Assembly: GCA_050298595.1 (NCBI GenBank)
Contig: JBNKUM010000089.1
Coordinates: 1-64,000, forward strand
DNA from: Gammaproteobacteria bacterium
GTDB taxonomy: Bacteria > Pseudomonadota > Gammaproteobacteria > GCA-001735895
Direction: 5' to 3'
Length of the DNA: 64,000 bases
In this document: positions 51,399 to 60,539 of the stretch, piece by piece
Layout: the number at the start of each line of letters is the position of its first letter
Numbering within the stretch: the stretch's first letter is position 1
Notes under the pieces: model-generated
Databases searched by the model: none
Seen by the model: only the letters and a program-made list of their open reading frames with translations
Told to the model about the DNA's origin: nothing
Program-made: the position numbers and the translations under genes

Positions 51399-52775
51399 TT
51401 AAGCACATATTTGCTGATACATTTGCATGGCACTGGAAGACTCCTTGCCGGTTAAAATGAAACCAACCAGCTTGCCTTCAGACAGGTACTCAATATGCTG
51501 ATCGTTCACATCTCTGCGCTCCAGCGCACTTTGATCCAGAGTATTTGGCAGACATATAGTAAGTGGAAAACTCGGTGTTTTCACGCGCACCAGAGGAGAT
51601 ACTGACTGAAAAGGTACAACATTCCCTTTCAGCTGAGCTGCAATAGTTTCAGCCTGCCGACGTATGGGCTCTATGTACGCAAATATCTGACCATCAACCT
51701 CTGCACAATCTCCAATTGCATACACATCGGCAACTGAACTACGCATCAGGTGATCGGTGATAATACCCTTACCTACTACCAGCCCGGCTTTTTCGGCCAG
51801 TTGTGTATTGGCCTGTAAGCCCGCAGCCGACAACACCAGATCGGTTTCCAGTGCCGTTCCGTCAGCAAGAACGGCTCGTAAACGGTCAGCATTGTGCTCT
51901 ACCTGATCCAGCGTAGTACCCAGATGCCAGTCAACACCTCTTTGCTGAAGCTGGGCCTTTAATTGCTGTGATACATCATTCGGTAGCAAACTGGGCATTG
52001 CGTGATCACCAGGTTCGATCACACTAACCTTGTAACCTGCTGATGACAAATCTTCGGCAAATTCACAGCCGATAAGGCCTGCGCCCAGAATGGTGACATG
52101 TCGAACACCTTCATCCAGACGTTTACGTAATTTTTTATACGCCATCAGGTCATTAACACTGACAACGCTTTGGGCGGCATCACCCGCTATGGGTATGTGA
52201 CGCTGATGCGCGCCCATGGCGAGAATTAAATGGCCATACTGAATGCCACCTTTTGATGTGGTAATACGCTTTTTCTGCGTATCTATCTTGATCACTCGGG
52301 TTTCGGTTCTCACATCGATATTTAACGATTCAGCTTTGCTGGCCGCATCCATATCGGATAGATCTTCTACTGTTTTACCTTTTGCCAGCGCTGTAGACAA
52401 CGCCGGTTTTGGGTAAATGATGCCTTCGCAGGCTGATACTAAAAGCACAGGCGTTTGCTGGTCCAGTTTACGCACGGCCTCTGCCACCGACCAGCCACCG
52501 ATGCCTGAACCAATAATAACGATGGCATCTTCACTACCTCGACTCGTTTTCTTAGCTGCCGATTTGACAACCTTACTCACAGCAGCCATTACCGGGGCAT
52601 CCGGTAACAGACGTAAATCACTTTTAGTCAGACCACATAATGGGCACTCCCAGTCATCAGGGATATCCTCAAAGCGCGTTCCAGCTATTAGTCCCGAATC
52701 CGGATCCCCGACGGCTTCATCATAGATAAACCCACAGGCATCGCACACATAACGTTTAAAGTCTGACACAGTCAT
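51399..52775 (-). CDS. Rubredoxin fused to NAD(P)H:rubredoxin reductase
   Basis: [40 protein letters not shown]. Confidence 0.9.
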
Positions 52776-52778
52776 TAT

Positions 52779-53159
52779 CTAGCCCTCATCTACCGAGTTA
52801 ATGATATTGCTAAAAATTTCATCCAGTTCCTGACCGATAGCTTCAAGCTCTGGCGAATTAAATGGTGTAAATACTTCTCCAGGCATACGGCAGGCAACGA
52901 TGACGTCTTCATCCTGCTCATAAACATGGATTCGCAAAGGAATATCATGCCCTGCTGGCTTGCAGGCTTGCCACACTCGAATGGCAAAATCGGGCCTGAA
53001 TACTTCCAGGATTTGGTCAGCGGGTACGGTTTTACCCATTTTGGCTGCATTGGCCTGACCATTAATATGCGCGACGACACGCATGTTGTTTTGTTCAATG
53101 GCAGCAAGCAAGGTTTCTACAGTTTGCTCCGCTGACAGATTGGATTTGATTTGTTTCAT
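52779..53159 (-). CDS. DUF302-like protein
   Basis: VVAHIN...NA..G, ILEVF.P, PLRI.VYE. Confidence 0.75.
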   Translation of the reverse strand: MKQIKSNLSAEQTVETLLAAIEQNNMRVVAHINGQANAAKMGKTVPADQILEVFRPDFAIRVWQACKPAGHDIPLRIHVYEQDEDVIVACRMPGEVFTPFNSPELEAIGQELDEIFSNIINSVDEG

Positions 53160-53208
53160 CGCATTCTCTTTTATAGAGTGAGGGGCTTAACGCCCCTCGT
53201 GATTAGGA

Positions 53209-54342
53209 TCAGGCTGCGACTGCTACGGTGTCGAGTTCTTTACGCAGATGTTTGATTGCCGGTGTTACGATGGCAATAAAATATGACTCACGTAGTTTCC
53301 TCTGTGCAGGAGCTTCCTTCAGATAACCCTTTGCACCCGTGTGCATCATAGCTGACTGAGAAGCCCGAATGGCCAGTTCACCGGCAGCCAGACGCAGTTG
53401 CAAAATCTCGCGGAAAAACTCATCCGAGGTTTCGAAAGGATCCTCAGCCAGTGCCAGAGTAGCCTCAACAGCGTCATCCAGCTCTTCCTGAAGTTCATCA
53501 GGTCTATCTTCAAGATAACAGTTAACGTGACCTAACAGTGGCTCTACTTCACGGCTGATATCGATACAGGATTGAATATTGCCAACGCCCATACCAAATT
53601 GCAGCAATACCATACCGGCACGAATGCGTTTCAGGAATGCTGCACCATCGTGATCAATAATCATTGAGTCTGGAATAAATACATTGTCAAAGATACAGGC
53701 AAAGGTTCTGGTGCCTTCCAATGCGGTAAAATGCGCGGAAAGTCTGAGTGTAAAACCCTCCGTTGAACAATCTACCAGCGCCATTACCGAGCGACCATTT
53801 GCACCTTCCAGTTCGAATAAGGTACCAAAGACGTGGTTTTCTCCCAGATTAGATACCCAGGGCAGAGAACCGTTGACGATATATCCACCGTCAACTTTCT
53901 TACCTTTCAGACGTAGAGGCTCGATACCGGCAAATGCCTTCATAGTATTCGACATACCGGTACCAGCGAGTACCTCACCGCTGGAAACCTTTGGTAACCA
54001 GATGTCACGTACCTCTGAATTTTCTGCATTTTGCAGATACCATCCACAGGTATCCTGACACCACATGGTAAACCCGGTCGACAGGCATTCATGCGAAACG
54101 GTAGCCATCGCCAGAATAGCTGCTCCCATATCATGAGCGCCATCTGGGCGTGCAAAAGGCAGGTGCTGTTTAAAAGCACCGATGGGGCCAAGTTGACGCA
54201 GGATTTCTTCAGGATAATAACCTTCAATATCAATCTTGTTGGTTAATGGCTTTAAGCTGGTATCGACAATCTGCTGTGTCGCGACTATTAATTCATCGAC
54301 AGATAACAGCTCGTCGATCTTTTTCATTGAGGTTTCGCTCAT
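53209..54342 (-). CDS. Acyl-CoA dehydrogenase-fold flavoprotein, substrate unknown
   Basis: GTGMSN..K, GGY.VNG.LPWVSN, H.GA.GY, R.LRE..F. Confidence 0.82.
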   Translation of the reverse strand: MSETSMKKIDELLSVDELIVATQQIVDTSLKPLTNKIDIEGYYPEEILRQLGPIGAFKQHLPFARPDGAHDMGAAILAMATVSHECLSTGFTMWCQDTCGWYLQNAENSEVRDIWLPKVSSGEVLAGTGMSNTMKAFAGIEPLRLKGKKVDGGYIVNGSLPWVSNLGENHVFGTLFELEGANGRSVMALVDCSTEGFTLRLSAHFTALEGTRTFACIFDNVFIPDSMIIDHDGAAFLKRIRAGMVLLQFGMGVGNIQSCIDISREVEPLLGHVNCYLEDRPDELQEELDDAVEATLALAEDPFETSDEFFREILQLRLAAGELAIRASQSAMMHTGAKGYLKEAPAQRKLRESYFIAIVTPAIKHLRKELDTVAVAA

Positions 54343-54368
54343 AGCTATGGCTCCTTTAAAACCGACAA

Positions 54369-58964: not shown

Positions 58965-58997
58965 GGTACATCTCCAAGGTTAATAAATTTGTTTGGT

Positions 58998-59816
58998 TCA
59001 GGCAGCTTTCTGATCGGAATCTTGCTTGTTTTGGGAAGTTACTGCTGCTTCAGATTCTGTTTCATGCGGGTGAATATCACCCACCAGGCTTTCAAACTTA
59101 GACATCAACTGTTCACGTTGGCGACTAAATTCAGCCGAAGCTCTATTGCGAGGAAGTGGCAAATCTATATTGACCTCACCAACAATCCGTCCAGGGTTGG
59201 CCGACATGATGAGTACACGGTCAGCCATCGCAACCGCTTCATCGATATCGTGGGTCACTATGACCATTGTCAGGCCTTCCTGAGTAACGATGTTCGCTAC
59301 ATCGTCCTGCAGACTGGCACGGGTAAAGGCATCCAGCGCTGAAAAAGGTTCATCCAGTAACAGCAATTCCGGCGAGGTCGCCATAGAGCGGGCTACTGCT
59401 ACACGCTGCTGCTGACCACCTGACAGGCTCTGTACATTGGCATCAGCCTTATCCGACAGACCTACCATGGCCAGCAGTCGATCTATCTTTTTAGCATCGC
59501 GCTTACCGGTGAATATCAATCCCAGTTCAGCGTTCTCGCGTACGCTCATCCAGGGATATAAAGAGGGTTTCTGAAACATCATGTTCCATTTTGCACTGGG
59601 CTTGGTCACAGTATGCCCATGAATACGCACACAGCCCTGAGATGGCATCAGTAATCCCGCCAACATATGTAACAGCGTGGATTTTCCACAACCACTACGT
59701 CCGATAAGAGCGATTTTTTCGCCCGGTTTAATCTGTAACTCTATATTTTCAAGGGTTGGCTGCTTCTGCCCCTTAAATGTGTGAGTGATGAAATCGATAC
59801 TTAAGTTTGCACTCAT
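58998..59816 (-). CDS. ABC ATPase (NrtD/TauB-type)
   Basis: GRSGCGKS, LSGGQQQR, DEPFSALD, VTHD. Confidence 0.92.
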   Translation of the reverse strand: MSANLSIDFITHTFKGQKQPTLENIELQIKPGEKIALIGRSGCGKSTLLHMLAGLLMPSQGCVRIHGHTVTKPSAKWNMMFQKPSLYPWMSVRENAELGLIFTGKRDAKKIDRLLAMVGLSDKADANVQSLSGGQQQRVAVARSMATSPELLLLDEPFSALDAFTRASLQDDVANIVTQEGLTMVIVTHDIDEAVAMADRVLIMSANPGRIVGEVNIDLPLPRNRASAEFSRQREQLMSKFESLVGDIHPHETESEAAVTSQNKQDSDQKAA

Positions 59817-59850
59817 GGCAATACCTCAAAACATAATTTGATTTCTTCAA

Positions 59851-60045
59851 TGCAGGGATCATGCCATAAGCATTACTGTCCGTTTCAGCCGTTTCATTAC
59901 GACTTTCTCTACCTTTGTCCATTCTGTCATGTCCACATTGTCGACTTTGTCGGACAAACTCAGCGCTCTTTAGCCCTTCATATACATGTTTTTATGTACA
60001 CAGCTAATAACTTCCCCAAAAAACGACTCTGGCATTGCATTTGCA
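59851..60045. promoter_or_regulatory. Divergent sigma-54 promoters with a central candidate UAS
   Basis: Minus strand TGGCATGATCCCTGCA (59866-59851); plus strand TGGCATTGCATTTGCA (60030-60045); TTGTCGACTTTGTC (59938-59951). Confidence 0.8.
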
Positions 60046-60098
60046 TTGCAGCAATTACCAATAACTGAATCGTTACTAATTAATCGAGGTAAAAATCT

Positions 60099-60539
60099 AT
60101 GAATAAACACGAAATGAAAGAAGCCATACTGGCTGCAAAAAAAGATAAAGGACTCAGCTGGGCAGCCATTGCTGAAGCAGCCGGACTGGCGCCTGAATAT
60201 ACCACCTCAGCCTGCCTGGGCATGAATCACCTGGAAAAAGAGAATGCAGATCCAGTAGCAGAGATTCTGGGACTGGGTGCAGATCTTTCATCTGCTCTAC
60301 AGGACTACCCGAACAAGAAATGGGAACAGATGGTACCTACTGACCCTGTCATTTATCGCTGGTATGAAATTGTTGGTGTGTATGGCGAAACCATTAAAGA
60401 ACTGATCCATGAAAAATTTGGCGATGGCATCATGTCAGCTATCGATTTCACCATGAATATCGACAAGCAGGAAGATCCTAAAGGAGACCGAGTCGTGGTA
60501 ACACTGAATGGTAAATTCCTGCCTTATAAATCCTGGTAA
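60099..60539 (+). CDS. cynS: Cyanate hydratase (cyanase)
   Basis: PTDP.IYR.YE, E.FGDGIMSAIDF, GK.LPY. Confidence 0.96.
   Translation: MNKHEMKEAILAAKKDKGLSWAAIAEAAGLAPEYTTSACLGMNHLEKENADPVAEILGLGADLSSALQDYPNKKWEQMVPTDPVIYRWYEIVGVYGETIKELIHEKFGDGIMSAIDFTMNIDKQEDPKGDRVVVTLNGKFLPYKSW

Follow-up and report, generated by a model that had tools for sequence, protein, structure and literature searches.

At positions 51399–60539 of the window analysed here, a 64,000-nucleotide (nt) stretch from a sulfur-oxidizing Gammaproteobacteria bacterium (GCA_050298595.1, contig JBNKUM010000089.1, positions 1–64,000; genome 5.49 Mb), the cyanase gene cynS shares a nine-gene cluster with an anion importer, a sigma-54 activator and a four-protein redox module. 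We tentatively propose, with a confidence a little short of even, that the importer brings in thiocyanate (SCN−) and that the module oxidizes it to cyanate and sulfane sulfur in a reaction dependent on O2 and NADH. That the module forms cyanate from a precursor of one kind or another, a broader claim, we regard as rather probable. The gene content of the cluster, its co-regulation signals, its conserved linkage to cynS, the kinship of its importer and the recruitment of rhodanese genes to it are established.

An open reading frame (ORF) list and two profile libraries (Pfam and NCBIfam) recovered all nine genes (Table 1). cynS is divergent from the genes for an ATP-binding cassette (ABC) importer and a GAF-domain activator, which are followed by those for an OsmC-like protein, a protein of acyl-CoA dehydrogenase (ACAD) fold, a DUF302 protein and a fusion of rubredoxin to an NADH:rubredoxin reductase, just as a first-pass annotation of this DNA had laid them out. 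CynS passes both curated cyanase models (TIGR00673, 172.3 bits with a cut-off of 113.3; NF002773, 212 bits with a cut-off of 150).

Linkage of the redox module to cyanase

A pattern-seeded search that drew on a single genome of each species gave 54 loci with a gene for a relative of the ACAD-like protein; to these, 8 loci from an unbiased class sample were added. Some of these 8 may repeat genomes already among the 54, locus L045 and genome G021 clearly being the same. The window proteins were mapped by tblastn onto the resulting 62 related loci (1.03 Mb), 31 of which come with 8 kb or more on either side (full flanks). An OsmC-like gene accompanies the ACAD-like gene in all 31 full-flank loci (60/62 of all loci), the reductase fusion in 30 (55/62), the activator in 29 (53/62), DUF302 in 25 (47/62), a binding protein of the window's type in 25 (39/62), cynS in 24 (43/62), rhodanese in 9 (17/62) and a canonical CynA-like binding protein in 5 (12/62). 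Wherever gene order was read, the OsmC-like gene lies directly upstream of the ACAD-like gene.

The class sample comprises 401 evenly drawn genomes and served the ACAD-like, cynS and ScnC searches alike; it spans related genomes, and its counts are hence not independent. The ACAD-like family (threshold E ≤ 1e-60) was found in 12 of 400 scored genomes (G248 unscored), representing 11 genera, and cynS in 55 of 401, one of them flagged as unpublished (G039). The first-pass annotation had looked to co-occurrence of the module with cynS across genomes, and this is borne out: besides the full-flank loci, cynS is present in 12/12 ACAD-positive genomes of the class sample versus 43/389 of the remainder, and in 10 of the 12 it lies on the same contig within about 10 kb. 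All five checked genomes without cynS in the fetched locus carry it elsewhere. A phylum sample of 381 genomes gave 14 ACAD-like positives, of which the 12 new ones were fetched; 10 of these loci have an adjacent OsmC-like gene, 6 have cynS within 10 kb and 5 a rhodanese gene. Among five phylum-sample genomes checked for cynS elsewhere, it was present in three and not in G674 and G566. The link of the module to cyanase is thus strong, not absolute.

Carriers are mostly sulfur-oxidizing Gammaproteobacteria, namely Sedimenticolaceae including Ca. Thiodiazotropha, Thiohalomonadaceae, Chromatiaceae including Thiohalocapsa halophila, Cocleimonas and Acidihalobacter; the others include Acidithiobacillus, Aquabacterium, Zwartia, Thiobacillus and metagenome-assembled genomes (MAGs) of Hyphomicrobiaceae and Armatimonadota. 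Linkage to cynS extends to Acidithiobacillus, Aquabacterium, the Armatimonadota MAG and other classes of the phylum. Sets of OsmC-like, ACAD-like and rhodanese genes outside the Gammaproteobacteria often occur without the rubredoxin reductase, and in L125 and L127 (other classes) and L052 (Armatimonadota) such a set stands beside the gene of a TetR-family regulator, not of a sigma-54 activator. In L134, a 748-amino-acid (aa) cysteine-desulfurase-like gene adjoins the OsmC–ACAD set.

Regulatory signals shared by the cluster

Predicted −24/−12 elements lie 35–55 nt upstream of cynS, the ABC ATPase gene and the OsmC-like gene. Since a loose sigma-54 pattern (2 mismatches) occurs across the window at chance frequency (43 found versus 42.2 expected), conservation of position was tested: against a background of 0.09 per 260 nt, TGG-N9-TGCW is found upstream of OsmC in 46/59 related loci, of cynS in 29/39 and of the ABC ATPase gene in 35/36. 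The case for these predicted promoters is therefore one of position and conservation across loci, not of window-wide counts.

A second signal is a 14-nt motif, TTGTCGACWTTGTC, which has exactly three exact copies in the 5.49-Mb genome, all in the cluster: upstream of the OsmC-like gene (55051), upstream of the likely ATG of the activator (56737) and in the middle of the cynS/ABC divergent region (59938). It replaced a 9-mer form, GACAWTGTC, which, with 1 mismatch allowed, did not exceed chance in the window (19 sites versus an expected 13.9). Across the 62 related loci, TTGTCGACWTTGTC with at most 1 mismatch gave 82 sites, all 82 within 400 nt upstream of a cluster gene, and the reversed control pattern gave 1 site. 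Copies stand upstream of OsmC in 42/62 loci, upstream of the activator gene in 11 and in the cynS/ABC divergent region in 16.

The stretch after the permease gene (56815–56890, minus strand) folds at −39.5 kcal/mol (z −5.7) into a hairpin that is likely to terminate the ABC operon; a consensus terminator scan did not report it, folding did. Because this hairpin follows the permease gene and the activator has its own motif copy, we count four predicted transcription units (cynS, the ABC operon, the activator and the redox operon). The first-pass annotation had described three units with sigma-54 promoters and a common upstream motif; promoters and motif are conserved in position, and the number of units is revised. 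The activator itself probably starts at ATG 56726, behind AGGAG, rather than at TTG 56750. Its identification as NifA or NorR was rejected, both model scores being below cut-off (449 bits versus 529 and 347 bits versus 476, respectively). The best explanation of these signals is a single local sigma-54 regulon, in which a GAF activator in the position of CynF would co-express importer, redox module and cyanase.

Kinship of the importer and recruitment of rhodanese

The solved relatives of the window's binding protein are the C-terminal domains of NrtC and CmpC, and NrtA, so that the first-pass term 'NrtA/CynA-type' is right at the family level; its CynA half has to be given up, the protein falling outside the canonical CynA clade in a tree of 62 binding proteins (quick search, LG+G4 model, Pseudomonas CynA sequence not among them). 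In this tree, the 39 ACAD-linked binding proteins form a clade (Shimodaira–Hasegawa-like approximate likelihood ratio test (SH-aLRT) 91) that is sister to 9 proteins linked to the thiocyanate hydrolase genes scnBAC (SH-aLRT 98); the two clades are jointly supported at 100 and separated by long branches from 13 canonical CynA-like proteins of related loci, and the Zwartia binding protein branches below both. Model scores of the permease (NtrB, 129 bits; SaoP, 139 bits) and of the ATPase (ntrCD, 216 bits) are below cut-off. Small inorganic anions are the ligands of the NrtA-family binding proteins of solved structure. One locus, L110, combines a canonical cynABD–cynS set with an importer of the window's type, the latter divergent from the OsmC operon, and a canonical-type importer also adjoins the cluster in L015, L020, L028 and L034.

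A two-domain rhodanese is encoded in 17/62 loci, at no fewer than six different positions, and in the 5 of 12 further loci from other classes. It stands after the reductase gene (L012, L106, L113), divergent from OsmC (L014, L030, L044), after cynS (L025, L029, L040, L046, L107), inside the ABC operon (L033), before OsmC (L049, L056, L109), between OsmC and ACAD (L052) or after ACAD (L048), and four of the cluster copies have a sigma-54 element of their own. Kinship of the importer, the dual importers of L110 and rhodanese recruitment are three independent lines that point to thiocyanate or cyanide chemistry.

Thiocyanate hydrolase in the same genome and class

As the first-pass annotation had stated, ScnABC is absent from the window; the only ScnC match of the genome lies on contig C14, not on the window contig C89. 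Contig C14 (7000–19000; locus L057:2094–13770) holds a canonical cluster in the order scnB, scnA, scnC, with a gamma subunit scoring 384 bits against TIGR03887 (cut-off 291) and with the beta subunit divided between two ORFs, one for its N-terminal and one for its C-terminal half. The organism does not, therefore, lack a known thiocyanate route. A small ORF without assignment, a paralogous ABC importer (binding protein 55% and permease 54% identical to those of the window), a DsrE-like gene and a type III sulfide:quinone reductase-like gene follow; a second cynS lies about 4 kb away, and two LysR genes and a GlcF-like gene stand beside the cluster. The same layout, nearby cyanase included, is published for Thiobacillus thioparus and Thioalkalivibrio thiocyanodenitrificans, as is the importer family beside scnBAC for the former, according to passages of PMC5328954. 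The first-pass annotation had likewise stated that copper thiocyanate dehydrogenase (TcDH) is absent; there is no copper beta-propeller (TcDH-type) match among the Pfam-scanned ORFs of the window, although no search aimed at TcDH was made.

ScnC scores above cut-off in 10/401 class-sample genomes. Eight of the nine other positive genomes were fetched (L086–L093; the ninth has it on a 2.6-kb contig), which with the window's genome gives nine scnBAC loci: the window's importer family is present in 9/9 and cynS is adjacent in 6/9. Thiocyanate hydrolase yields carbonyl sulfide (COS) and ammonia, not cyanate, yet cyanase accompanies it in these six loci. Setting the window's genome aside, none of the 9 ScnC-positive genomes of the class sample is among its 11 ACAD-positive ones, and ScnC was found in 0/5 further ACAD carriers, including the complete genomes from Acidithiobacillus ferrianus and Sedimenticolaceae.

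Proteins of the redox module

The AlphaFold2 model of the ACAD-like protein (mean predicted local distance difference test score (pLDDT) 91.6) has its best Foldseek matches in short-chain, butyryl- and isovaleryl-CoA dehydrogenases (template modelling (TM) score 0.74–0.85, 15–20% identity), with no DszC-type structure among the matches listed. The Pfam middle and C-terminal ACAD domains are unmatched, and the highest-scoring NCBIfam model reaches 50.8 bits with a cut-off of 640. Aligned with human short-chain ACAD, a 20-member family profile matches over the L-S-E-P, W-I-T-N and G-G-M-G-Y stretches, which we take to be flavin contacts, and the alignment ends at profile position 351, short of the catalytic Y-E-G-T. 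In medium- and short-chain ACADs the catalytic glutamate lies near the C-terminus, in this Y-E-G-T; read by eye, the equivalent place in the ACAD-like family has V-T-P, its T360 nearly and its P361 fully invariant. The protein is probably a flavoprotein with a rebuilt active site. Its invariant Cys86 was dropped as a special catalytic residue, human short-chain ACAD having a cysteine at the aligned position. With 148 representative clusters at E ≤ 1e-30 the family is a small one, and its look-alikes in the ESM Atlas are only generic 'acyl-CoA dehydrogenase family' clusters. A representative library also holds a 681-aa protein, P0259, in which a SLAC1/TehA-type anion channel is fused to an ACAD-like domain only distantly related to the window's protein (29% identity), and the Acidithiobacillus loci have an FNT channel and a porin-like gene between reductase and cynS; both the fusion and the FNT channel would fit a small anion as substrate.

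OsmC/Ohr peroxidases use a two-cysteine mechanism, with a peroxidatic and a resolving residue. In the OsmC-like protein, Cys90 is present in 60/60 relatives and the second canonical cysteine in none of these 60, its position being a serine in an invariant S-P-V-A; the score against the NCBIfam 'OsmC-related (seleno)protein' model is below cut-off. DUF302 keeps Cys66 in 44/47 relatives and Cys90 in 42/47. The reductase fusion scores 297.9 bits against the NorW model (cut-off 392) and has both an Rbx_binding domain and the N-terminal rubredoxin. Handling of sulfur by OsmC and supply of electrons by the rubredoxin fusion, as the first-pass annotation had assigned them, are adopted below as inferred roles.

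Gene cluster and surroundings

Table 1. Features of the cyanase cluster in the window (strand: +, forward; −, reverse;., none assigned)
Feature	Position	Strand	Basis
Rubredoxin fused to NorW-like NADH:rubredoxin reductase, 458 aa	51399–52775	−	Pfam Rubredoxin 8–53, Pyr_redox_2 85–361, Rbx_binding 395–455
DUF302 protein, 126 aa, accessory member	52779–53159	−	Pfam DUF302, 37 bits
ACAD-fold protein, distinct subfamily, 377 aa	53209–54342	−	Pfam Acyl-CoA_dh_N only, 38.9 bits
1-Cys OsmC-like protein, 182 aa	54369–54917	−	Pfam OsmC, 69 bits
Predicted sigma-54 −24/−12 promoter of OsmC operon, TGGCTCGACCGTTGCA	54961–54976	−	Pattern scan; position conserved
Candidate activator site TTGTCGACATTGTC, about 140 nt upstream of OsmC-like gene	55051–55064	.	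One of 3 exact genome copies
GAF/sigma-54 AAA+/HTH_8 activator, CynF-like position	55107–56726 (ORF to 56750)	−	Pfam GAF 41–178, Sigma54_activat 211–377, HTH_8 505–543
Second exact motif copy, just upstream of activator's ATG	56737–56750	.	Genome-wide exact match
18-bp hairpin followed by UUUU, after permease gene; likely ABC operon terminator	56830–56868	−	RNA folding
ABC permease, NitT/TauT type	56887–57729	−	Pfam BPD_transp_1
Periplasmic binding protein, NrtA family, twin-arginine leader	57726–58964	−	Pfam NMT1_2, 145 bits
ABC ATPase	58998–59816	−	Pfam ABC_tran
Predicted sigma-54 −24/−12 promoter of ABC operon, TGGCATGATCCCTGCA	59851–59866	−	Pattern scan; position conserved
Motif pair, cynS/ABC divergent region	59929–59951	.	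Exact copy 59938–59951; overlapping 2-mismatch copy 59929–59942
Predicted sigma-54 −24/−12 promoter of cynS, TGGCATTGCATTTGCA	60030–60045	+	Pattern scan; position conserved
Cyanase CynS, 146 aa	60099–60539	+	Pfam Cyanate_lyase, 130 bits, and CYNS_N

Directly after cynS, positions 60622–63177 encode genes for the cobalamin lower ligand and nucleotide loop (CobD threonine-phosphate decarboxylase, CbiB and BluB), with a G+C content of 0.57–0.60 versus about 0.47 in the cyanase cluster; CobD adjoins cynS in the close relative L005, too. On the other side, genes for a bacteriohemerythrin, a GGDEF diguanylate cyclase and a DUF5062 protein (48052–51376) flank the redox operon, and the DUF5062 gene remains beside the reductase gene in the close relatives L004, L005 and L007. 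Elsewhere in the window, replication-origin-type genes (MnmG/GidA, RsmG/GidB, ParA, ParB and ATP synthase subunit a; 24985–36275) are adjoined by further ORFs of the same orientation, and a 1256-aa ORF on the minus strand (15704–19474) has no Pfam match at E ≤ 1e-8.

Proposed function and alternatives

Peroxide chemistry turns both SCN− and CN− into cyanate. In the mechanism we propose, NADH would reduce the fused reductase and its rubredoxin, rubredoxin would reduce the flavin of the ACAD-fold protein, and the reduced flavin would activate O2. The single conserved cysteine of the OsmC-like protein would take up the oxidizing equivalent, possibly held as a sulfenate, and react with SCN− to an adduct that would resolve into cyanate and a cysteine persulfide. 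The sulfur would pass to the cell's sulfur-oxidation system, via rhodanese where the cluster encodes one, and CynS would split the cyanate into ammonia and CO2. Overall, this would amount to SCN− + O2 + NADH + H+ → OCN− + S(0) + H2O + NAD+. What we infer here is the substrate, which way the electrons flow and what each protein does. The first-pass idea of a module that converts an imported precursor to cyanate draws support from the linkage to cynS, the importer's kinship and rhodanese recruitment, while its best guess of the substrate, thiocyanate, stays a proposal.

Several observations weigh against thiocyanate oxidation. With scnBAC, a dedicated importer and a second cynS in the same genome, a second thiocyanate route would be partly redundant, and because cynS accompanies scnBAC, which makes no cyanate, its linkage is no proof that a neighbour makes cyanate. 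The ACAD-linked and scnBAC-linked importers are distinct sister clades and might bind different anions; a canonical CynA-type importer occurs in 12/62 loci and 7/12 further phylum loci, many of which pair the module with it only. The window's cluster has no rhodanese, nor does its genome hold an orthologue (best match 28% identical). Outside the class, the complete genome G674 has ABC, OsmC-like and ACAD-like genes and no cynS, and several loci have no reductase. The E ≤ 1e-60 search also catches an ACAD-like protein of G566 (L132; 42% identity) encoded among ketoacyl synthase and acyltransferase (lipid-synthesis) genes, standing alone, without OsmC, in a genome without cynS, and probably representing a paralogous subfamily that does something else; its congener G559 (L133) likewise has no OsmC.

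Some of these points would be accommodated by plain cyanate assimilation, in which the importer takes up cyanate, CynS splits it and the redox module is an unrelated helper, an account that we consider unlikely. OsmC proteins are classically peroxidases, and in an equally unlikely elaboration the module would counter side effects that cyanate, or growth under nitrogen limitation in sulfide-rich cells, would have, for instance peroxide, oxidized or carbamoylated thiols or hypothiocyanite-like oxidants; the OsmC-like protein, however, is without the second cysteine of the peroxidase cycle in 60/60 relatives. The loci with a canonical CynA-type importer and the presence of cynS beside scnBAC also speak for it, as does the activator–ABC–cynS layout, which matches the cyanate-induced, CynF-requiring cynFABDS genes described in parts of PMC6627978. 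It leaves unexplained, though, why rhodanese was recruited at several positions and why the importer is sister to those linked to scnBAC; L110 has two different importers beside one cyanase, and a stress helper would not be expected to track cynS so closely across distant lineages.

Sequences do not tell CN− from SCN− as the substrate, and a flavoprotein fed by the rubredoxin reductase might instead oxidize cyanide to cyanate, possibly via S-cyanylation of the OsmC-like cysteine. We know of no gene for a cyanide monooxygenase. Rhodanese, whose textbook reaction consumes cyanide and which joins the cluster repeatedly, would then be a parallel cyanide sink and the importer would serve cyanate or thiocyanate, and the several loci in which the module goes with canonical cyanate importers or no dedicated importer would suit a membrane-permeant substrate. 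Hydrogen peroxide has, moreover, been used to oxidize cyanide to cyanate (CECT5344 paper, PMC6627978, in excerpt). We nevertheless hold cyanide oxygenation, and these parts for rhodanese and importer, to be quite unlikely: 25/31 full-flank loci include an importer of the scnBAC-linked type, co-regulated with the module, which cyanide would not need, and the anion-channel-fused relative and the FNT channel point to an anion. Another small N–C–S, N–C–Se or organosulfur substrate, such as selenocyanate, a thiocarbamate or an organic thiocyanate, or a sulfur acquisition unconnected to cyanate, is improbable. ACAD-fold organosulfur oxygenases of the DszC and SfnB type do exist, G674 has its cynS-free set beside a cysteine-desulfurase-like gene, and transporter parts weakly match the SaoA, SaoP and SaoX models, as the OsmC-like protein does the (seleno)protein model; those scores are all far below cut-off, however, linkage to cynS is the rule, and the solved NrtA-family proteins take small inorganic anions.

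Relation to known systems

Two enzyme types are described for thiocyanate breakdown, a cobalt thiocyanate hydrolase and the copper TcDH (PMC5328954, in part). On our nearly balanced judgement, the module could be a third, non-homologous, cytoplasmic desulfuration system based on flavin and cysteine, acting on SCN− that is imported or made from cyanide by rhodanese; and, with a likelihood only just on the lower side of even, this system may have spread in sulfur-oxidizing Gammaproteobacteria and reached Acidithiobacillia, Burkholderiales, Alphaproteobacteria and Armatimonadota.

The activator–ABC–cynS part is a variant of the characterized cynFABDS system of Pseudomonas pseudoalcaligenes CECT5344, which, in the available text of PMC6627978, has a sigma-54 Fis-type activator, a NitT/TauT importer, cyanase and a sigma-54 promoter before the structural genes. 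The window differs in that cynS is a divergent unit of its own, the binding protein lies outside the canonical CynA clade, and motif and promoter type would also drive a four-gene redox operon that is not in the Pseudomonas cluster as given there. Induction by cyanate together with repression by ammonium would mark a regulon of the cynFABDS type; a look for RNA sequencing runs that hold the window listed none. With the scnBAC clusters (COS pathway) it shares a sister-clade importer, nearby cyanase (6/9 loci) and sulfur-oxidizing carriers; in place of the nitrile-hydratase-type subunits, DsrE and sulfide:quinone reductase it has the redox module, and its predicted regulation is by sigma-54 whereas LysR-type genes flank the scn cluster. 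The overall chemistry proposed for the module, SCN− to cyanate and zero-valent sulfur ahead of cyanase, is that of TcDH plus cyanase, the 'cyanate pathway' of Thioalkalivibrio (PMC5328954 and PMC6504805, in extracts); TcDH is described there as a copper enzyme of the periplasm that bears a twin-arginine signal (PMC5328954), whereas the window's module would be cytoplasmic, flavin- and thiol-based and fed by NADH.

The two-component flavin monooxygenases of ACAD fold, of the DszC and SfnB type, resemble the module in a fold without the usual acyl-CoA signature, an accompanying reductase and likely sulfur substrates. The window's reductase is a rubredoxin–NorW fusion rather than a flavin reductase, and an OsmC-like partner is present in 60/62 loci. 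Like the cluster, NorR–NorVW combines a GAF sigma-54 activator with a NorW-like NADH:rubredoxin reductase; nitric oxide detoxification of the NorVW type was rejected, there being no flavodiiron NorV, the NorR and NorW models scoring below cut-off and the partners being cynS, OsmC-like and ACAD-like genes.

A full-text literature search found no paper describing the OsmC/ACAD/DUF302/rubredoxin-reductase module. An Acidihalobacter paper holds cynS and OsmC in unrelated contexts (PMC9062700), and the DUF302 protein of sox-cluster papers is a different one of 191 aa, presumed to be periplasmic (PMC5037610). Cyanase and thiocyanate hydrolase, with their transcription, come up in papers on the Thiodiazotropha symbionts; in the main-text portions covered, supplementary tables aside, the module does not (PMC11171427, PMC9938160).

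Implications

Thiocyanate is a widespread natural and industrial C–N–S compound. Cyanase activity has long been noted in thiocyanate users, many of them without a matching enzyme, and to our knowledge the enzymes of heterotrophs that obtain nitrogen from thiocyanate have not been identified. To infer a 'cyanate pathway' from cyanase activity has been called not valid (PMC5328954, in an excerpt). The module now has defined genes, predicted promoters and cultured carriers, among them Thiohalocapsa halophila DSM 6210, Acidithiobacillus ferrianus MG and Zwartia panacis KCTC 42751. At the pathway level the theme is known, that of a cyanase regulon and of 'cyanate pathway' chemistry; what would be new, provided the proposed function is right, is the enzyme system itself. 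Even if the module does not make cyanate, tight co-regulation with cyanase would still mark a step, so far unknown, in the biology of cyanate in sulfide-rich habitats. If the module does make cyanate, it would enlarge the enzymology of the sulfur and nitrogen cycles by a new system, assign roles to one subfamily each of ACAD and 1-Cys OsmC proteins and to a DUF302 protein, and explain part of the distribution of cynS (of the 55 cynS-positive class-sample genomes, 12 carry the module and 7 ScnC, 18 in all); it would also offer new parts for the treatment of cyanide and thiocyanate waste.

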